Sequence record: ON239131
From: Escherichia phage S164
Direction: 5' to 3' (one strand)
DNA length: 30,272 bases
How positions within the stretch are numbered: position 1 is the stretch's first letter; every line of letters begins with the position of its first letter. The notes beneath the pieces are model-generated. The model was not told where the DNA came from. It made no database searches and worked only from the letters and a program-made list of their open reading frames with translations. Below, piece after piece: positions 3,169 through 30,272 of the stretch. The position numbers and the translations under genes are program-made.

Positions 3169-4023
3169 ATGGCAAAAAAAGTCTCAAAATTCTTTCGTAT
3201 CGGCGTTGAGGGTGACACCTGTGACGGGCGTGTCATCAGTGCGCAGGATATTCAGGAAATGGCCGAAACCTTTGACCCGCGAGTCTATGGTTGCCGCATT
3301 AACCTGGAACATCTGCGCGGCATCCTGCCTGACGGTATTTTTAAGCGTTATGGCGATGTGGCCGAACTGAAGGCCGAAAAGATTGACGATGATTCGGCGC
3401 TGAAAGGCAAATGGGCGCTGTTTGCGAAAATCACCCCGACCGATGACCTTATCGCGATGAACAAGGCCGCGCAGAAGGTCTATACCTCAATGGAAATTCA
3501 GCCGAACTTTGCCAATACCGGCAAATGTTATCTGGTGGGTCTGGCCGTCACCGATGACCCGGCAAGCCTCGGCACGGAATACCTGGAATTCTGCCGCACG
3601 GCAAAACACAACCCCCTGAACCGCTTCAAATTAAGCCCTGAAAACCTGATTTCAGTGGCAACGCCTGTTGAGCTGGAATTTGAAGACCTGCCTGAAACCG
3701 TGTTCACCGCCCTGACCGAAAAGGTGAAATCCATTTTTGGCCGCAAACAGGCCAGCGATGACGCCCGTCTGAATGACGTGCATGAAGCGGTGACCGCTGT
3801 TGCTGAACATGTGCAGGAAAAACTGAGCGCCACTGAGCAGCGCCTCGCTGAGATGGAAACCGCCTTTTCCGCACTTAAGCAGGATGTGACTGACAGGGCG
3901 GATGAAACCAGCCAGGCATTCACCCGCCTGAAAAACAGTCTCGACCACACCGAAAGTCTGACCCAGCAGCGCCGCAGCAAGGCCACCGGTGGTGGCGGTG
4001 ACGCCCTGATGACGAACTGCTGA
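3169..4023 (+). CDS. O: Capsid scaffolding protein
   Basis: ORF 3103-4023; start at MAKKVSKFF gives 284 aa as in P2 gpO; coiled-coil-like C-terminus. Confidence 0.85.
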   Translation: MAKKVSKFFRIGVEGDTCDGRVISAQDIQEMAETFDPRVYGCRINLEHLRGILPDGIFKRYGDVAELKAEKIDDDSALKGKWALFAKITPTDDLIAMNKAAQKVYTSMEIQPNFANTGKCYLVGLAVTDDPASLGTEYLEFCRTAKHNPLNRFKLSPENLISVATPVELEFEDLPETVFTALTEKVKSIFGRKQASDDARLNDVHEAVTAVAEHVQEKLSATEQRLAEMETAFSALKQDVTDRADETSQAFTRLKNSLDHTESLTQQRRSKATGGGGDALMTNC

Positions 4024-4081
4024 CCGGCGTCAGTCAGTCCGGGAAAACCTTCACGATTAACCCTTAATTTCAGGAAAAACT

Positions 4082-5155
4082 ATGCGCCAGGAAACCCGCT
4101 TTAAATTTAATGCCTACCTGTCCCGTGTTGCCGAACTGAACGGCATCGACGCCGGTGATGTGTCGAAAAAATTCACCGTTGAACCGTCGGTCACCCAGAC
4201 CCTGATGAACACCATGCAGGAGTCCTCTGATTTTCTGACCCGCATCAACATTGTGCCGGTCAGCGAAATGAAAGGGGAAAAAATTGGTATTGGTGTCACC
4301 GGCTCCATCGCCAGCACCACCGACACCGCCGGTGGCACCGAGCGTCAGCCGAAGGACTTCTCGAAGCTGGCGTCCAGTAAGTACGAATGCGACCAGATTA
4401 ACTTCGATTTTTATATCCGCTACAAAACGCTGGACCTGTGGGCGCGTTATCAGGATTTCCAGCTCCGTGTCCGTAACGCCATTATCAAACGTCAGTCCCT
4501 TGATTTAATCATGGCCGGTTTTAACGGCGTGAAGCGTGCCGAAACCTCTGACCGCAGCAGCAATCCGATGCTGCAGGATGTGGCGGTCGGCTGGCTGCAG
4601 AAATACCGCAATGAAGCCCCGGCGCGCGTGATGAGCAAGGTTACTGACGAGGAAGGTCACACCACCTCTGAGGTCATCCGCGTGGGTAAGGGCGGTGATT
4701 ATGCCAGCCTCGATGCACTGGTGATGGATGCGACCAACAACCTGATTGAGCCGTGGTATCAGGAAGACCCTGACCTTGTGGTGATTGTGGGGCGTCAGTT
4801 ACTGGCGGACAAGTATTTCCCCATCGTTAACAAGGAGCAGGACAACAGCGAAATGCTGGCCGCTGACGTCATCATCAGCCAGAAACGCATCGGTAACCTG
4901 CCGGCGGTACGCGTCCCGTACTTCCCGGCGGATGCGATGCTCATCACGAAGCTGGAAAACCTGTCCATCTACTACATGGATGACAGCCATCGCCGCGTGA
5001 TTGAGGAAAACCCGAAACTCGACCGCGTGGAGAACTACGAGTCAATGAACATTGATTACGTGGTGGAAGACTACGCCGCCGGTTGTCTGGTGGAAAAAAT
5101 TAAGGTCGGTGACTTCTCCACACCGACTAAAGTGACCGCAGAGCCGGGAGCGTAA
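4082..5155 (+). CDS. N: Major capsid protein
   Basis: 357 aa, same length and position as P2 gpN. Confidence 0.9.
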   Translation: MRQETRFKFNAYLSRVAELNGIDAGDVSKKFTVEPSVTQTLMNTMQESSDFLTRINIVPVSEMKGEKIGIGVTGSIASTTDTAGGTERQPKDFSKLASSKYECDQINFDFYIRYKTLDLWARYQDFQLRVRNAIIKRQSLDLIMAGFNGVKRAETSDRSSNPMLQDVAVGWLQKYRNEAPARVMSKVTDEEGHTTSEVIRVGKGGDYASLDALVMDATNNLIEPWYQEDPDLVVIVGRQLLADKYFPIVNKEQDNSEMLAADVIISQKRIGNLPAVRVPYFPADAMLITKLENLSIYYMDDSHRRVIEENPKLDRVENYESMNIDYVVEDYAAGCLVEKIKVGDFSTPTKVTAEPGA

Positions 5156-6717: not shown

Positions 6718-6999
6718 ATGACAGCAGAAGAAAAAAGCGTCCTGTCGCTTTTCATGATTGGGGTGCTGATTGTTGTCGGCAAGGTGCTTGCCGGTGGTGA
6801 ACCCATCACCCCGCGTCTGTTTATCGGGCGCATGTTGCTCGGTGGTTTTGTCTCGATGGTTGCCGGTGTTGTTCTGGTGCAGTTTCCTGACCTGTCACTG
6901 CCTGCAGTGTGCGGCATCGGCTCCATGCTGGGTATCGCCGGTTATCAGGTGATTGAGATTGCCATTCAGCGCCGCTTTAAGGGCAGGGGGAAACCGTAA
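6718..6999 (+). CDS. Y: Holin
   Basis: 93 aa with hydrophobic transmembrane segments and a basic C-terminus; sits immediately before the endolysin. Confidence 0.85.
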   Translation: MTAEEKSVLSLFMIGVLIVVGKVLAGGEPITPRLFIGRMLLGGFVSMVAGVVLVQFPDLSLPAVCGIGSMLGIAGYQVIEIAIQRRFKGRGKP

Positions 7000-7496
7000 T
7001 GCCGGTAATTAACACGCATCAGAATATCGCCGCCTTTCTCGACATGCTGGCGGTATCCGAAGGGACGGCAAATCATCCGCTGACGAAAAACCGTGGCTAT
7101 GACGTGATAGTCACCGGACTGGACGGGAAGCCGGAAATTTTCACCGACTACAGTGACCACCCGTTCGCGCATGGCCGACCGGCGAAGGTGTTTAACCGTC
7201 GCGGTGAAAAATCCACGGCCTCCGGTCGCTATCAGCAGCTTTACCTGTTCTGGCCGCATTACCGCAAACAGCTTGCCCTGCCGGATTTCAGTCCGTTGTC
7301 ACAGGACAGACTCGCCATTCAGTTGATCCGCGAACGCGGTGCGCTGGATGACATCCGGGCGGGACGCATTGAGCGCGCCATTTCACGCTGTCGCAATATC
7401 TGGGCGTCCCTGCCGGGTGCCGGTTACGGTCAGCGTGAGCATTCACTGGAAAAACTGGTCACCGTCTGGCGTACCGCTGGCGGCGTACCGGCTTAA
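6999..7496 (+). CDS. K: Endolysin (lysozyme/transglycosylase type)
   Basis: 165 aa, same as P2 gpK; position in the lysis cassette. Confidence 0.85.
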   Translation: MPVINTHQNIAAFLDMLAVSEGTANHPLTKNRGYDVIVTGLDGKPEIFTDYSDHPFAHGRPAKVFNRRGEKSTASGRYQQLYLFWPHYRKQLALPDFSPLSQDRLAIQLIRERGALDDIRAGRIERAISRCRNIWASLPGAGYGQREHSLEKLVTVWRTAGGVPA

Positions 7497-7510
7497 ACGG
7501 AGTAAACACC

Positions 7511-7936
7511 ATGAAGAAATTATCCCTTTCACTGATGCTGAACGTGTCGCTGGCGCTGATGCTGGCACTGTCCCTGATTTACCCGCAGAGCGTGGCCGTC
7601 AATTTTGTCGCCGCCTGGGCGATTCTGGCGATGGTTATCTGTGTGGTTGTCGGTGGTGTCGGCGTGTATGCCACTGAGTATGTGCTGGAACGCTACGGGC
7701 GGGAGCTGCCGCCGGAATCGCTGGCCGTGAAGATTGTCACGTCGCTGTTTTTGCAGCCGGTGCCGTGGCGCAGACGGGCGGCGGCTCTGGTAGTGATGGT
7801 GGCGACGTTTATCTCGCTGGTTGCCGCCGGGTGGATTTTTACTGCGCTGATTTATCTCGTGGCGTCGCTGTTTTTCCGGCTGATACGTACGGCCTGCCGT
7901 CAGCGTCTTGAGGGGCGGGAACTATGTCAAAGCTGA
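7511..7936 (+). CDS. lysA: LysA-like membrane protein (lysis timing)
   Basis: 141 aa, several hydrophobic helices; P2 lysA position. Confidence 0.75.
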   Translation: MKKLSLSLMLNVSLALMLALSLIYPQSVAVNFVAAWAILAMVICVVVGGVGVYATEYVLERYGRELPPESLAVKIVTSLFLQPVPWRRRAAALVVMVATFISLVAAGWIFTALIYLVASLFFRLIRTACRQRLEGRELCQS

Positions 7937-25219: not shown

Positions 25220-25491
25220 GTATTCGTATTGAAATTGGCGAACGTTATGTCGTTACCAGTGACAGCTTTCAGTTTATTCTCCACGAGAAAAAGAGAGCTG
25301 AAAGCGGTAAAAACGCCGGTCAGGAATGGCTGGCGGTGGTTGGTTATTACCCGAAATTAAGCCAGCTTGTTTCCGGCCTGATGCATCACGATATTCTGAC
25401 CGGAAGCGCAAAGTCTTTTGCTGATTTAAACGCGCAGGTTGAGCAACTCAGCAAGCGTTGTTCAGAGGCTTTTGGCTCATATGGCCGTTAA
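25216..25491 (+). CDS. Hypothetical protein (P2 orf83 position)
   Basis: 91 aa; overlaps the A start. Confidence 0.55.
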   Translation: MSIRIEIGERYVVTSDSFQFILHEKKRAESGKNAGQEWLAVVGYYPKLSQLVSGLMHHDILTGSAKSFADLNAQVEQLSKRCSEAFGSYGR

Positions 25492-27766
25492 AGCCTCCGG
25501 GCGTTTTGTCCCTCCGTCAGCATTTGCCGCAGGCACCGGTGAGACGTTTACCGGTGCTTATGCATGGAACGCGCCACGCGAGGCCGTCGGGCGCGAAAGA
25601 CCCCTTACACGTGACGAGATGCGTCAGGTGCAAGGTGTTTTATCCACGATTAATCGCCTGCCTTACTTTTTGCGCTCGCTGTTTACTTCACGCTATGACT
25701 ACATCCGGCGCAATAAAAGCCCGGTGCACGGGTTTTATTTCCTCACATCCACTTTTCAGCGCCGTTTATGGCCGCGTATTGAGCGCGTGAATCAGCGCCA
25801 TGAAATGAACACCGACGCGTCGTTGCTGTTTCTGGCAGAGCGTGACCATTATGCGCGTCTGCCGGGGATGAATGACAAGGAGCTGAAAAAGTTTGCCGCC
25901 CGTATCTCATCGCAGCTTTTCATGATGTATGAGGAACTCTGCGATGCATGGGTTGATGCACATGGCGAGAAAGAATCGCTGTTTACAGATGAGGCGCAGG
26001 CGCATCTGTATGGTCATGTTGCTGGCGCTGCACGTGCTTTCAATATTTCCCCTCTCTACTGGAAAAAATACCGTAAAGGACAGATGACCACGAGGCAGGC
26101 ATATTCTGCCATTGCCCGTCTGTTTAACGATGAGTGGTGGACTCATCAGCTTAAAGGCCAGCGTATGCGCTGGCATGAGGCGTTACTGATTGCTGTCGGG
26201 GAGGTCAATAAAGACCGTTCTCCTTATGCCAGTAAACATGCCATTCGTGATGTGCGTGCACGCCGCCAGGCAAATCTGGAATTTCTTAAATCGTGTGACC
26301 TCGAAAACAGGGAAACCGGCGAGCGCATCGATCTTATCAGTAAGGTGATGGGCAGTATTTCTAATCCTGAAATTCGCCGGATGGAGCTGATGAACACCAT
26401 CGCCGGTATTGAGCGTTACGCCGCCGCAGAGGGTGATGTGGGGATGTTTATCACTCTGACCGCGCCGTCAAAGTATCACCCGACACGTCAGGTCGGAAAA
26501 GGCGAAAGTAAAACCGTCCAGCTAAATCACGGCTGGAATGATGAGGCATTTAATCCAAAGGATGCGCAGCGTTATCTCTGCCGCATCTGGAGCCTGATGC
26601 GCACGGCATTCAAGGATAATGATTTACAGGTCTACGGTTTGCGAGTCGTCGAGCCACACCACGACGGAACGCCGCACTGGCATATGATGCTTTTTTGTAA
26701 TCCACGCCAGCGTAACCAGATTATCGAAATCATGCGTCGCTATGCGCTCAAAGAGGATGGTGACGAAAGAGGAGCCGCGCGAAACCGTTTTCAGGCAAAA
26801 CACCTTAACCGGGGCGGTGCTGCGGGATATATCGCGAAATACATCTCAAAAAACATCGATGGCTATGCACTGGATGGTCAGCTCGATAACGATACCGGCA
26901 GGCCGCTGAAAGACACTGCCGCGGCTGTTACCGCATGGGCGTCAACGTGGCGCATTCCGCAATTTAAAACGGTTGGCCTGCCGACAATGGGGGCTTACCG
27001 TGAACTACGCAAATTGCCTCGCGGCGTCAGCATTGCTGATGAGTTTGACGAACGCGTCGAGGCTGCACGCGCTGCCGCAGACAGTGGTGATTTTGCGTTG
27101 TATATCAGCGCGCAGGGTGGGGCAAATGTTCCGCGCGATTGTCAGACTGTCAGGGTTGCCCGTAGTCCGTCGGATGAAGTTAACGAGTACGAGGAAGAAG
27201 TCGAGAGAGTGGTCGGCATTTACGCGCCGCATCTCGGCGCGCGTCATATTCATATCACCAGAACGACGGACTGGCGCATTGTTCCGAAAGTGCCGGTCGT
27301 TGAGCCTTTGACTTTAAAAAGCGGCATCGCCGCGCCTCGGAGTCCTGTCAATAACTGTGGAAAGCTCACCGGTGGTGATACTTCGTTACCGGCTCCCACA
27401 CCTTCTGAGCACGCCGCAGCAGTGCTAAATCTGGTTGATGACGGTGTTATCGAATGGAATGACCCGGAGGTTGTGAGGACGCTCAGGGGTGCATTAAAAC
27501 ACGGCCTGAAAACACCAAATCGTCAGCAAAGAAACGGAAGCCCGTTAAAACCACATGAAATAGCACCGTCGGCCAGACTGACCCGGTCGGAACGATTGCA
27601 AATTACCCGTATCCGCGTTGACCTCGCTCAGAACGGTATCAGGCCGCAACGATGGGAGCTTGAGGCGCTGGCGCGTGGCGCGACAGTAAATTATGACGGG
27701 AAAAAATTCACGTATCCGGTCGCTGATGAGTGGTCGGGATTCTCAACAGTAATGGAGTGGACATGA
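25481..27766 (+). CDS. A: Rolling-circle replication initiation protein
   Basis: ORF 25439-27766; start at MAVKASGRF gives 761 aa, the length of P2 gpA; translationally coupled to orf83. Confidence 0.85.
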   Translation: MAVKASGRFVPPSAFAAGTGETFTGAYAWNAPREAVGRERPLTRDEMRQVQGVLSTINRLPYFLRSLFTSRYDYIRRNKSPVHGFYFLTSTFQRRLWPRIERVNQRHEMNTDASLLFLAERDHYARLPGMNDKELKKFAARISSQLFMMYEELCDAWVDAHGEKESLFTDEAQAHLYGHVAGAARAFNISPLYWKKYRKGQMTTRQAYSAIARLFNDEWWTHQLKGQRMRWHEALLIAVGEVNKDRSPYASKHAIRDVRARRQANLEFLKSCDLENRETGERIDLISKVMGSISNPEIRRMELMNTIAGIERYAAAEGDVGMFITLTAPSKYHPTRQVGKGESKTVQLNHGWNDEAFNPKDAQRYLCRIWSLMRTAFKDNDLQVYGLRVVEPHHDGTPHWHMMLFCNPRQRNQIIEIMRRYALKEDGDERGAARNRFQAKHLNRGGAAGYIAKYISKNIDGYALDGQLDNDTGRPLKDTAAAVTAWASTWRIPQFKTVGLPTMGAYRELRKLPRGVSIADEFDERVEAARAAADSGDFALYISAQGGANVPRDCQTVRVARSPSDEVNEYEEEVERVVGIYAPHLGARHIHITRTTDWRIVPKVPVVEPLTLKSGIAAPRSPVNNCGKLTGGDTSLPAPTPSEHAAAVLNLVDDGVIEWNDPEVVRTLRGALKHGLKTPNRQQRNGSPLKPHEIAPSARLTRSERLQITRIRVDLAQNGIRPQRWELEALARGATVNYDGKKFTYPVADEWSGFSTVMEWT

Positions 27767-28218
27767 TGGCAAAAATTCACGAGGTAAAGCTGCACGCAAA
27801 ATATTTCGACCTTGTGCTGGAAGGAAAGAAACGCGCAGAGTTTCGGAAAAATGACCGTAATTATGAGCGCGGGGACACGTTGATTTTGCATGAATGGGGG
27901 CAGGGTGTGTATACGGGGCGAAAGGTTGAAGCCCGGATAACAGATGTTACTGACCTGTCAGACTGGCTGGAAGATTATGTCTTGCTAAGTATTGAGCTGC
28001 TTAATACAGGCGCATATGAGATTGTGAACAGGAAAGAACTTAGTGAGCGTGGTCTGTTATTCAGAATTAATCATGAAATTATGCATAAGCTCGGCCTTGC
28101 TGTTATGTATGAACCAGAGACGGGAATGTCTGGCGGGGCAATGGTTGCCACGGATGGAGCATGGAACTATTCAGATGAACAGATGGAGCGTGCACAGCAA
28201 AACGGGTGGCTTGGATAA
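27763..28218 (+). CDS. orf91-position protein with a possible ASCH/PUA-like (DUF3850-type) N-terminal domain
   Basis: ATGA overlap with the A stop; N-terminus MMAKIHEVKLHAKYFDLVLEGKKRAEFRKNDRNYERGDTLILHEW resembles DUF3850/ASCH-like domains from memory; C-terminal half unrecognised. Confidence 0.55.
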   Translation: MMAKIHEVKLHAKYFDLVLEGKKRAEFRKNDRNYERGDTLILHEWGQGVYTGRKVEARITDVTDLSDWLEDYVLLSIELLNTGAYEIVNRKELSERGLLFRINHEIMHKLGLAVMYEPETGMSGGAMVATDGAWNYSDEQMERAQQNGWLG

Positions 28219-28424
28219 TGCACAGAATACCAGGCGAGATACCGCACCATAAAACTAAAAATATCAAGCTGATGGCTATTGTTCAGCGTTTACAGCGGAT
28301 TATGGTCAACGAAAATCTGACGCCCGATGAGCTAGTCGGGTGTGCCGAAATAGTCCGGGATAATTACGGGCGGTTTAACTATATCGGTCAGTCCAGAGTT
28401 GCGCCACCACCACGCAGACGATAG
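28218..28424 (+). CDS. Small hypothetical protein
   Basis: 68 aa from the internal Met of ORF 28206-28424; TAATG overlap with the preceding gene; GC content like the core genome; no motif recognised. Confidence 0.4.
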   Translation: MHRIPGEIPHHKTKNIKLMAIVQRLQRIMVNENLTPDELVGCAEIVRDNYGRFNYIGQSRVAPPPRRR

Positions 28425-28427
28425 ATA

Positions 28428-28468
28428 ACGCCGCCAGTCGTGAAACTTGTTTTCAGGGCTGGCGGCGT
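28428..28468 (+). other. Stem-loop (10-bp perfect stem ACGCCGCCAG / CTGGCGGCGT, 21-nt loop) overlapping the start of repeat copy A
   Basis: Perfect inverted repeat just downstream of the stop at 28424; no T-run follows, so a classical terminator is unlikely. Confidence 0.45.
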
Positions 28469-28495
28469 TGAACAACGAGTGAAGCGAGGCGTTAG
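28441..28495 (+). repeat. Copy A of a ~55-bp direct repeat preceding moron gene 1
   Basis: Ungapped 42/55 identity by hand alignment with 29413-29467 (TGAAACTTG...GGCGG.GTTGA.CAA.GAGT...GTTAG). Confidence 0.75.
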
Positions 28496-28653
28496 TTGAC
28501 ATTCATATTTTTACTGCGTTGGTGCTGTTTTTTGACGGTTGAAAGGAGTTATCTCGGAGAGCTAAAGCTAACAACTTACAAATATTCAAAAGTAAGCTTC
28601 CTGTTGCTAACATAAGGTCGATTTTTTATGTGGATGATGCAAAAAGGATAGCT

Positions 28654-29385
28654 ATGGATACTATAATCGCTTTTCTATCACTCGCTTTTTTTGTTGCTTT
28701 TTTCATCGGGTTAATCAAGCCATCACTGGTGCGAATGCCAAGCCGCAAACGTGCAAGTGCGGTTTATCTCGGAGGAGGTTTTGTATTGAGCATAATTGGT
28801 TCAATACTCTATCCAACAGAAAAAAGCCAGCCAGTTGCTAAAACTGAAACATCAACCGTTGTAGAACACCAAGTCCAAAAAACATTCGAATATGGTGAAA
28901 AAACACTCAAGGAATATCGGAGCGAGCCAAAGAAAACTCGACACGATATTGTGAATAGTTACATTGACTTTAAGAAAGTTCCAGTCACCGCATCAGATGC
29001 ATTTTATGCCTGCATGAGTGAGTATACATTTACCAAAGATGATGAGTTGAAACTCGGTGATGTTCTTGGGTGGTGCTTTAATGATTATGAAAATGACCCG
29101 AGTTCACTAAATAATAAAATCAATCTTGATACATTTCAGAGTAATTTTAGTGGTTGGGATGGTTCTTATCGTCCATTGGAAAAACTAATTAAAGATAATA
29201 TGAACGATGATTCATCTTATAAACATGTATCAACGGTATATCATTTAGTTTTGAATAAAGACCCGCACGCCATTGTGAAAACGACGTTTCGCGGCACTAA
29301 TGCTTATGGTGGCATGGTCAAACAGACTGTAGCAGCGCGAGTTGACGTGCGAACGGGTGAGATCGATTCAATACTCGACAATTAA
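28654..29385 (+). CDS. Moron gene 1: predicted membrane protein (two N-terminal transmembrane helices plus a ~180-aa C-terminal domain), unknown function
   Basis: ORF 28630-29385 opens on GTG; the ATG at 28654 has RBS AAAAAGGA. Hydrophobic helices IIAFLSLAFFVAFFIGLI and LGGGFVLSIIGSILY. AT-rich relative to the core genome. Occupies the P2 tin/old position. Confidence 0.7.
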   Translation: MDTIIAFLSLAFFVAFFIGLIKPSLVRMPSRKRASAVYLGGGFVLSIIGSILYPTEKSQPVAKTETSTVVEHQVQKTFEYGEKTLKEYRSEPKKTRHDIVNSYIDFKKVPVTASDAFYACMSEYTFTKDDELKLGDVLGWCFNDYENDPSSLNNKINLDTFQSNFSGWDGSYRPLEKLIKDNMNDDSSYKHVSTVYHLVLNKDPHAIVKTTFRGTNAYGGMVKQTVAARVDVRTGEIDSILDN

Positions 29386-29412
29386 ATAATATAGTGACAG
29401 CTCCGTCAGTGA

Positions 29413-29467
29413 TGAAACTTGCTTTTAGTCTTGGCGGGGTTGAGCAATGAGTCTTGCAAGGTGTTAG
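29413..29467 (+). repeat. Copy B of the ~55-bp direct repeat preceding moron gene 2
   Basis: See copy A; lies 28 bp after the stop of moron gene 1. Confidence 0.75.
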
Positions 29468-29507
29468 CATGCGTAGAATGGAAGCTGCTTGGACGTGGGG
29501 TATTCAT

Positions 29508-30125
29508 ATGAATTTAAAAATTTTCGGCATAATTGTCCTTTCTGCTTTGATGTTCGTTTTAGGTTTTTTTCTCGGTGGTTTTAATTGGGAATGGGCTGAT
29601 AAGAATTATGCAGGTGAGGTGGCGTTGTGGAGTATGTTAGGAGGGTGGTTATCCGCAATTGCAACTCTGTTTGCCGTGTTGGTTTCATTATATATGGCGT
29701 ATCAAGCTACTCAGAATGAGATTGAAAAAATCAGGGTTACTCATGGAGTAAGTATGAGTGTCACTCATGACAATGAGTTAAGTTGTAATCTCATTATTCA
29801 GAACTTGAGAAATATGAAAGTGAATATTACTGGTGTTTTTTTGTCTCTAGGTAAATCATCAGGTAAGTACTCTTTGGATAAAGTAATTGACAATTGTAAT
29901 ATAACGCTTTCATATAAAGGTGAAACAGAAAAGGTACAATTTGTAATCCATTCTGGGTATATTTGGTGGTCAATGTATAAATTATTCGATATGGATAAGA
30001 ACATAGGTTTTGAAAAGGGTAAGATCTTTATAACAACCAACCTCAATACATATGAATTTGATTTGCCAAAAGAATATTTAAGAGCTTTTGAGAAAGCTTA
30101 TTCGGAGTATCAGACAAAAAAATAA
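29508..30125 (+). CDS. Moron gene 2: predicted membrane protein (N-terminal transmembrane hairpin plus a ~140-aa C-terminal domain), unknown function
   Basis: ORF 29454-30125 opens on TTG; first ATG at 29469, but I prefer MNLKIFGIIV at 29508. Helices IFGIIVLSALMFVLGFFLGGF and LGGWLSAIATLFAVLVSLYMAY. Strongly AT-rich with A/T-rich codon usage; last gene before cos. Confidence 0.7.
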   Translation: MNLKIFGIIVLSALMFVLGFFLGGFNWEWADKNYAGEVALWSMLGGWLSAIATLFAVLVSLYMAYQATQNEIEKIRVTHGVSMSVTHDNELSCNLIIQNLRNMKVNITGVFLSLGKSSGKYSLDKVIDNCNITLSYKGETEKVQFVIHSGYIWWSMYKLFDMDKNIGFEKGKIFITTNLNTYEFDLPKEYLRAFEKAYSEYQTKK

Positions 30126-30254
30126 TGAGCTGCATGCAAAAGGTGCATGTTTTTGCATGTGCTAAGTTCACTGGTTTTGTGTATATCGCTTCAGATCTAG
30201 CGTGGTTCCGGGGAGGGCATGCAACTGCATTAAAACCGCTCCATGAAGCGGGCG

Positions 30255-30272
30255 GGCGAGGCGGGGAAAGCA
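30255..30272. other. cos: cos cohesive-end sequence (right copy, 18 of 19 nt)
   Basis: Exact repeat of window positions 1-18. Confidence 0.8.

Follow-up and report, generated by a model that had tools for sequence, protein, structure and literature searches.

In Escherichia phage S164 (record ON239131), a P2-like phage (Peduovirus) whose 30,272-nucleotide sequence, hereinafter the window, apparently spans the phage genome from one cos-proximal end to the other, replication gene A (25439-27766, 775 aa) is followed, in this order, by a gene for a 151-aa protein at the position of P2 orf91 (orf151), a gene for a 68-aa protein (orf68) and a 72-nt element predicted to form an RNA hairpin. The pair of genes is optional among P2-like phages and assorts independently of the cargo genes farther downstream, tracking neither the phage backbone nor the cargo. 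With moderate confidence, we interpret the region as a dispensable module, complete in itself, that closes the P2 early (replication) operon and would most likely act as a non-essential lytic helper of DNA or nucleotide metabolism or of counter-defence. The genes are not a new entity, being already annotated in known phages (Wphi gp91/gp92, P22H4, P37, where the product is called 'ASCH domain protein', and L-413C). What is new here is the two-domain and three-part anatomy of the module, its independence from backbone and cargo, the recognition that the variable region has its left edge at the hairpin, and the recurrence of one of the domains, DUF7415, beside genes of the GPA family. The original prediction, which was made from the letters of the window, included neither the hairpin element nor the existing annotations in Wphi, P22H4, L-413C and other phages.

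The last 299 residues of A are at least 96% identical to those of many P2-like phages and prophages, and this C-terminus was used to retrieve 80 loci from IMG/VR, all at least 96% identical over it, a sample that is biased to A alleles near that of the window. The module content of each locus was established by profile searches on every open reading frame (ORF) between A and cos. The fused DUF3850-DUF7415 ORF that corresponds to orf151 was found together with orf68 in 40 loci, DUF3850 only in 6, a truncated or diverged orf68 only in 5, and neither gene in 29. In the 40 loci with both genes, the cargo falls into 20 different clusters; cluster 7 occurs with the pair in one locus (L038) and without it in three others (L074-L076), and in one locus (L026) the pair lies just 218 nt ahead of the cos-proximal end. 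Among complete E. coli genomes, the A segment is present in 1682 (1405 at 80% or greater coverage) and the block that extends from orf151 through the hairpin element (27763-28495) in 403 (343 at 80% or greater coverage), so that approximately one quarter of the E. coli P2-like prophages carry the block and approximately three quarters lack it. Given these counts in the two samples and the diversity of the associated cargo, the pair has to be considered an optional and independent module. The original prediction had offered a choice between a conserved phage function and the upstream part of the accessory cargo, and neither alternative fits: the pair is indeed kept when the cargo varies but does not follow the backbone, half of the loci and most of the E. 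coli prophages being devoid of the full pair.

The pair and the hairpin travel as a unit, within the interval between the stop codon of A (27766) and the conserved cos-proximal end. The final 54 nt of the window (30219-30272), at the far end of the variable region, are conserved at 87-98% in nearly all related loci, which sets the variable interval at 27767-30218. The positions at which similarity between the window and related loci breaks off are listed in Table 1; 5' stubs of orf151 in loci that lack the module suggest repeated loss during cargo replacement. Among phages with differing cargo, similarity stops at the 3' end of the element, after GTTAG. The complete arrangement is also found in an Enterobacter P2-like prophage (L087-L089), where a GPA gene is followed by a 154-aa DUF3850-DUF7415 gene (55% identical), a 68-aa homolog of orf68 (63%) and the element.

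Both orf151 and orf68 are real genes under purifying selection, weaker than that on A, as indicated by the coding-type distribution of synonymous and non-synonymous variant sites among related loci. In orf151, there are 61 synonymous and 86 non-synonymous variant sites, compared with 177 and 128 in the A C-terminus, and the ORF is intact in 38 of the 42 full-length relatives. In orf68, the respective numbers are 50 and 66 in frame, versus 19 and 68 and 20 and 67 in the other two frames, with an intact ORF in 31 of 35 relatives. The annotated ATG of orf151 at 27763 overlaps the TGA of A (27764-27766) and yields 151 aa up to the TAA at 28216-28218. In relatives, the A/orf151 junction reads ACATGATGG or ACATAATGG, and many loci have ATAATG; given that only the second ATG (27766), and not the annotated one, is conserved among relatives (the N-terminus of the Enterobacter homolog is MTKIH), the true product is probably a protein of 150 aa that starts at 27766. 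The ATG of orf68 overlaps the TAA of orf151 in a TAATG junction that is identical in 34 related loci, and the ORF ends with a TAG at 28422-28424. The orf151 protein is acidic (isoelectric point 5.4), and the orf68 protein is basic (10.5).

The N-terminal domain of orf151 is a DUF3850/ASCH member of the PUA-like superfamily. Both Pfam families match above threshold, namely DUF3850 (PF12961; aa 5-77, E = 5.5e-18, 65.4 bits against a cut-off of 22.9) and ASCH (PF04266; E = 5.8e-11, 43.4 bits against 21.2), and a search of PDB sequences retrieves 3IUW (NP_814290), a structural genomics target from Enterococcus faecalis (E = 4.6e-13, 40% identity). The AlphaFold2 (AF2) model of orf151, with a mean predicted local distance difference test score (pLDDT) of 84, contains a barrel of strands 5-11, 25-28, 39-46, 49-64 and 72-80, with a helix (12-19) after the first strand, and superposes in Foldseek on 3IUW with a target-normalized template modeling score of 0.89-0.90, a root-mean-square deviation of 1.5 A and 40% identity; weaker matches of the barrel are to YTH, the Lon N-terminal domain and the TRIP4 ASCH domain. 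Besides the barrel, 3IUW and orf151 share the KxxExRxNDR motif, but 3IUW, at about 80 aa, stands alone and lacks the DUF7415 extension. The translation of orf151 includes the ASCH octapeptide GxKxxExR in the form G21-K22-K23-R24-A25-E26-F27-R28 (27823-27846), in which K23 and R28 are unchanged in the relatives compared, two of which have L in place of E26. This motif is reportedly located at the predicted binding cleft, as defined in Iyer et al. 2006.

Among the characterized proteins of this fold, YqfB of E. coli (an N4-acylcytidine amidohydrolase), ZmASCH (an ssRNA, i.e. single-stranded RNA, ribonuclease of Zymomonas) and BapA (which strips glucose from glucosyl-5-hydroxymethylcytosine DNA) share with orf151 the PUA-like barrel and the GxKxxExR pocket, the 'conservative octapeptide' of ASCH proteins (PMC9599836), the match being at the superfamily level only and the DUF3850 barrel minimal, about 75 aa. 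The Lys21-Thr24-Glu74 triad of YqfB is not present in orf151, where, compared by motif register only, the equivalent of the nucleophile Thr24 is Glu26 (GKKRAEFR). Characterized ASCH folds, including, along with these three proteins, the sensors of type IV restriction systems, offer a pocket for a base or nucleoside (PMC9599836), and by analogy it is a reasonable inference that the pocket of orf151 binds a base or nucleotide; the binding of RNA or modified nucleotides, which was raised by the original prediction, may be inferred on the same grounds. Given the acidity of the protein, a small ligand or a specific site would be likelier than general coating of nucleic acids. In the literature searched, no report of base, RNA or DNA binding by any DUF3850 protein was found, and DUF3850 appears only as a partner of ParB-CTPase domains in prophages. 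These ParB-CTPase-DUF3850 fusions (PHROG 986, in which positions 93-181 match aa 1-87 of orf151 with E = 6e-43) are enriched in phages (PNAS 2025, PMC12704722). In orf151, by contrast, the partner is DUF7415 and the DUF3850 match begins as early as residue 5; Pfam and NCBIfam detected no member of the ParB or ParA families in the region.

The second domain of orf151, DUF7415, matches PF24187 with 40.5 bits against a cut-off of 27. The family core covers approximately aa 88-146, with the consensus ...LSxxGLxxRINxEILHPLGLA...GxSxGA...DGxWxY, in which G97, L98, N103 and G111 are invariant in an alignment of 61 sequences, and is modeled as two helices, a short beta hairpin and another helix. We found no solved structural relative of this domain, and no paper in the literature searched mentions it. 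The whole orf151 protein belongs to PHROG 1812 (E = 9.5e-80), and its C-terminal half alone matches PHROG 3954. With regard to the genes themselves, the original prediction was largely borne out: a 151-aa gene at the orf91 position and a 68-aa ORF are both present, each overlaps the stop codon of the preceding gene as expected of translational coupling, the guanine and cytosine (GC) content of orf151 (0.463) and orf68 (0.483) is indeed core-like (0.454 in the early operon upstream of A and 0.533 in A, compared with 0.34-0.39 in the two AT-rich cargo genes), and the N-terminal domain, described as ASCH/PUA-like of the DUF3850 type, was identified correctly; DUF7415 went unnamed.

DUF7415 is represented by 160 sequences at 50% identity, most of which are short stand-alone proteins; the confirmed fusions include three with a dATP/dGTP pyrophosphohydrolase (PF04447) and others with a thymidylate kinase and an Rv2179c-like exoribonuclease. 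A GPA-family gene was found within 4 kb in 10 of the 23 species-level DUF7415 loci, in 8 cases with A upstream of DUF7415 and in 2 with DUF7415 upstream of A. Genes that combine DUF7415 with a swapped N-terminus (X-DUF7415) lie directly 3' of GPA-family genes in Klebsiella, Enterobacter, Yokenella, Citrobacter and Pseudoalteromonas. The Klebsiella (185 aa) and Enterobacter/Yokenella (139 aa) proteins resemble orf151 in the position after the replication initiator gene and the C-terminal location of DUF7415, and in Citrobacter a 173-aa DUF3850-DUF7415 protein follows a 186-type A gene; they differ in the N-terminus, DUF3850 being confined to the E. coli, Enterobacter and Citrobacter versions, and in Klebsiella no orf68 homolog follows. 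Virulent phages are rich in both domains of orf151, with matches in 1134 phage records, including T4-, T5-, T7- and T1-like phages. In the T4-like phage KPV15, DUF7415 overlaps the end of nrdD; in the T5-like phage Stitch, it is last in the early operon, before the origin-binding gene; and in the T1-like Klebsiella phage VLCpiS13e, DUF3850 overlaps the end of a DNA helicase gene and adjoins a primase gene. A distant 170-aa relative of DUF7415, which has no Pfam match and was linked to the family by an alignment profile search and PHROG 3954, is encoded between the ribonucleotide reductase genes of a lytic phage, next to a NADAR gene and a 74-aa Acb2/Tad1-hairpin gene.

The orf68 protein belongs to PHROG 11386 (E = 4.9e-39) and has 179 homolog clusters in Escherichia, Salmonella, Citrobacter, Klebsiella and Buttiauxella. 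Common to these proteins is an invariant core (...KLMAxVxRLQxIMxNENLTPxELVGCAxxVRDN...); the linker varies in length, and the tail, conserved as PPPRR (PPPRRR in orf68), is encoded by differing codons among the homologs. In the model, helices 10-31 and 36-59 form a hairpin, the tail is disordered, and 30 residues have a pLDDT of 90 or higher. No credible match was found in Pfam, PDB sequence, PDB profile or Foldseek searches; a likeness to the Acb2/Tad1 hairpin, for which the only ground is the analogous neighbor gene in one lytic phage, was considered and discarded as unsupported. Truncated homologs of 50-51 aa (RefSeq E. coli H109, H126 and H129; P0118, P0127) are named 'meiotically up-regulated 80 protein', which looks like a spurious transferred name.

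The element that follows orf68 consists of a GC-rich hairpin (28427-28469) with 19-bp arms and a conserved tail that ends in GTTAG. The hairpin folds with -38.3 kcal/mol on the plus strand (z = -5.5), and in 18 varied copies 97% of the cells are paired and 6 of 12 pairs are compensatory, a result that none of 500 shuffles reached. A U-G pair is retained in 16 of the 18 copies, which means that the hairpin can form on the plus strand only; in the diverged second copy of the window, the hairpin is likewise kept on the plus strand only, through G-U pairs, and each of the two copies is placed just 3' of a stop codon. The element is found 3' of orf68 in every locus that has this gene, including the Enterobacter prophages and the loci that lost orf151. 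In two loci (L034 and L044), the sequence shared with the window runs exactly to 29467, the end of the second copy, and the element may be a cassette boundary or recombination anchor. It is present in 514 of 5426 complete E. coli genomes, in at most two copies per genome, which rules out a genome-wide repeat, and an Rfam scan of 27300-30272 at E-values up to 1 yielded no match.

Table 1. Coordinates of the module, its parts and neighbors in the window, and the positions at which similarity to related loci breaks off
Feature	Position	Strand	Evidence or number of loci
orf151, DUF3850/ASCH-DUF7415 protein at the orf91 position	27763-28218	+	ORF, Pfam, PHROG 1812, AF2 model
DUF3850/ASCH (PUA-like) beta-barrel, aa 5-77	27775-27993	+	Pfam, PDB sequence search, Foldseek
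DUF7415 domain, Pfam match aa 91-129	28033-28149	+	PF24187, E = 3.2e-10
orf68, 68-aa basic protein	28218-28424	+	ORF, PHROG 11386, in-frame coding signal, model
Conserved 72-nt element, from the orf68 stop codon to GTTAG	28424-28495	+	Repeat, folding, breakpoints, covariation
Diverged second copy of the element (74% identical), after the first cargo gene	29396-29467	+	Direct repeat, folding
Breakpoint in the last codons of A	27741-27761		23 loci
Breakpoint inside orf151, codon 9 or earlier	~27781-27783		4 loci
Breakpoint inside orf151, ~codon 28	27846-27851		6 loci
Breakpoint at the domain boundary, P2 type	27986-27999		7 loci
Breakpoint at the end of the element	28476-28514, mostly 28495-28499		17 loci (about 15 at 28495-28499)
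Breakpoint further downstream	beyond 28514		Remaining loci
First AT-rich cargo gene, 251 aa, hydrophobic N-terminal stretch	28630-29385
Second cargo gene, 223 aa, hydrophobic N-terminal stretch	29454-30125

Orf91 of P2 (NP_046796, 109 aa), which is listed as 'unknown' in the literature, is, like orf151, encoded directly after A with an overlapping start and contains DUF3850, with residues 1-75 96% identical. It differs in the absence of DUF7415: similarity to the window ends at 27986, the domain boundary, where the tin-old cargo of P2 starts, and P2 has neither orf68 nor the 72-nt element. The module DNA of Wphi (gp91/gp92), P22H4, P24A7b, 9W, P37 and L-413C is 93-97% identical to that of the window, and P22H4 also has the first cargo gene, a shorter call of which is labeled 'Orf97' in its record. 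In the Wphi record (L001, 3830-4531), orf151 is split into gp91 (DUF3850) and gp92 (DUF7415), and orf68 is in two frames; these splits stem either from errors of the old sequencing or from true frameshifts, which would leave the phage viable. L-413C has orf151 and lacks orf68.

Under the interpretation that we favor, orf151 and orf68 would be made together with A in lytic growth and not in the lysogen. The ligand of the ASCH pocket would be a base or nucleotide that is either free or flipped out of a nucleic acid (RNA or DNA), and DUF7415 would be a portable partner domain of the kind found elsewhere on enzymes that handle nucleotides. The orf68 protein, which is basic, may bind the acidic orf151 protein, and the hairpin would end or stabilize the early transcript and insulate the cargo. 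A role in the lytic cycle is favored over prophage-expressed defense because of the replication and nucleotide metabolism genes in the neighborhoods of both domains and the abundance of these domains in virulent phages, and the pair is most likely not a lysogenic-conversion or defense gene.

Several observations weigh against this interpretation or parts of it. The gpA-gpQ interval, in which the module is located, is defined in the literature as the P2 defense hotspot (PMC9122126; Rousset et al. 2022), and ASCH domains serve as sensors in some defense nucleases (PMC12191111). In the T7-like phage ST31, DUF3850 is encoded between tail genes, and in at least three Pseudomonas-type P2-like prophages (L104, L106 and L107; ~3500-4200; checked with Pfam), a stand-alone DUF7415 gene of 62-70 aa lies between gpL (head completion) and a muramidase gene, which rules out an invariable tie of DUF7415 to gene A. 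Other Pseudomonas loci (L103 and L111-L113) are similar as judged by ORF layout alone. The 'MazG-like' N-terminus of the Klebsiella fusion is a label in NCBI only that was confirmed neither by Pfam or NCBIfam nor by PDB sequence searches, and it was discarded. What suggests a complex of the orf151 and orf68 proteins, which may form, is their charge and co-occurrence. There is no U-tract 3' of the 28427-28469 hairpin, which is followed by GAACAACGAG and is not listed by the terminator scan; the hairpin is therefore not a canonical intrinsic terminator, and the element may have a role as single-stranded DNA.

A narrower version of a lytic role, to which we assign a rather low probability, is that the module is a counter-defense locus, with the ASCH pocket binding or processing a nucleotide signal or a base modification inflicted by defense, aided by DUF7415 and the hairpin protein. 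Small, early-expressed and patchily distributed genes that are common to unrelated virulent and temperate phages would be in line with such a function, as would the fusions of DUF7415 to nucleoside triphosphate pyrophosphohydrolases, the NADAR and Acb2/Tad1-hairpin genes next to the distant DUF7415 relative, the stripping of groups from bases by the known ASCH enzymes YqfB (PMC9599836) and BapA, and the helical hairpin modeled for orf68; the case is purely associative, however, orf68 has no detectable match to Acb2/Tad1 or anything else in sequence or fold, and the Thr nucleophile of the YqfB type is absent. The boldest form of this idea, an unlikely one in our estimate, would be an uncharacterized system of counter-defense or DNA care, in which the ASCH domain recognizes or reverses a base modification or captures a nucleotide signal during rolling-circle replication, DUF7415, found on phage nucleotide enzymes as well, is a new adaptor domain, and the GTTAG element doubles as a homology anchor for the exchange of defense cassettes.

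It appears equally unlikely that orf151 and orf68 are part of the cargo of the gpA-gpQ hotspot, anti-phage or lysogenic-conversion, in which case the ASCH domain might, for instance, sense modified phage nucleic acids and work with the downstream genes. The location within the hotspot interval (PMC9122126; PMC13586616), presence-absence polymorphism among near-identical phages, and the precedents of ASCH/PUA modification sensors in type IV restriction enzymes and of BapA, an ASCH-like enzyme in a defense operon, are compatible with this explanation; the two hotspot surveys (PMC9122126, PMC13586616) treat the whole gpA-gpQ interval as the hotspot and do not discuss orf91, DUF3850 or the element. 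Against it, the pair does not swap as a unit with neighboring defense genes but combines with unrelated cargo clusters, 20 in number, and even occurs in a locus with almost no cargo; it shares the strand of A and overlaps A codons; its GC content fits the early operon, not the cargo; and both domains are widespread in strictly virulent phages. PADLOC and NCBIfam searches with orf151, orf68 and the two downstream proteins gave nothing significant, and no nuclease domain was detected in any of the four genes with Pfam, NCBIfam or PADLOC, leaving the pair without an effector domain.

A more limited alternative, that orf68 is not a functional gene and its conservation reflects the adjacent RNA or DNA element or recombination history, is very improbable. 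It could account for the truncated forms of 48-51 aa beside the element in loci without orf151 (L057, L059, L061, L064 and L079), for the locus that has the element without orf68 (L083) and for the variable linker and length, but the synonymous excess is seen in frame and is lacking in the other two frames, the homologs with their invariant core are spread over several genera, the tail is maintained by different codons, the hairpin model is confident and the TAATG coupling is conserved. Least probable is a conserved backbone function, essential or nearly so, in A-dependent rolling-circle replication, for which one could cite the translational coupling to A, the X-DUF7415 genes that directly follow GPA-family genes as low as 33% identity (L117) and the methods section of one preprint (PMC12407873), in which P2 orf91 is termed 'an essential protein' and no data are given, seeing that 29 of the 80 loci with nearly identical A C-termini lack the pair and 11 more have truncated versions, only about 343 of the 1405 E. 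coli genomes with this A gene possess it, P2 retains the DUF3850 domain alone, both genes are frameshift-split in the Wphi record and orf68 is missing in L-413C; with many close relatives lacking the module, an essential role is excluded.

The two cargo proteins downstream of the module match PHROG 3403 and PHROG 16957 and have no match in PADLOC, Pfam or NCBIfam. In four related loci, L057, L059, L061 and L064 (region 6937-7920), orf151 and codons 1-17 of orf68 are replaced by two inserted genes, which encode a 91-aa DUF2158 protein and a 226-aa protein, and a second, different cargo is located 3' of the hairpin element, so that there are two separate insertion points in one hotspot. In five other loci (L040, L045, L058, L067 and L069), 200 nt from the 3' part of A (27435-27641 of the window) are present a second time, at 78% identity, immediately after A (approximately 7-210 nt past the full-length A match). 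Several odd fusions, of DUF3850 to spike, GPD or baseplate J proteins and of Cox to DUF7415 (P0014, P0017, P0018, P0034 and P0039), were not taken as real architectures and are probably internal-deletion remnants of decaying P2-like prophages.

The gpA-gpQ interval of P2-like phages is a search ground for new anti-phage systems. If the first 730 bp after A are indeed a separate and optional module of the early operon with a conserved hairpin at its end, the cargo of the hotspot would be delimited more cleanly, starting after the GTTAG at 28495, and two lytic-cycle genes would no longer be counted as defense candidates. DUF7415 also stands out as a portable domain, encountered repeatedly beside rolling-circle initiator genes and on nucleotide enzymes and offering phage biochemistry a tractable question.

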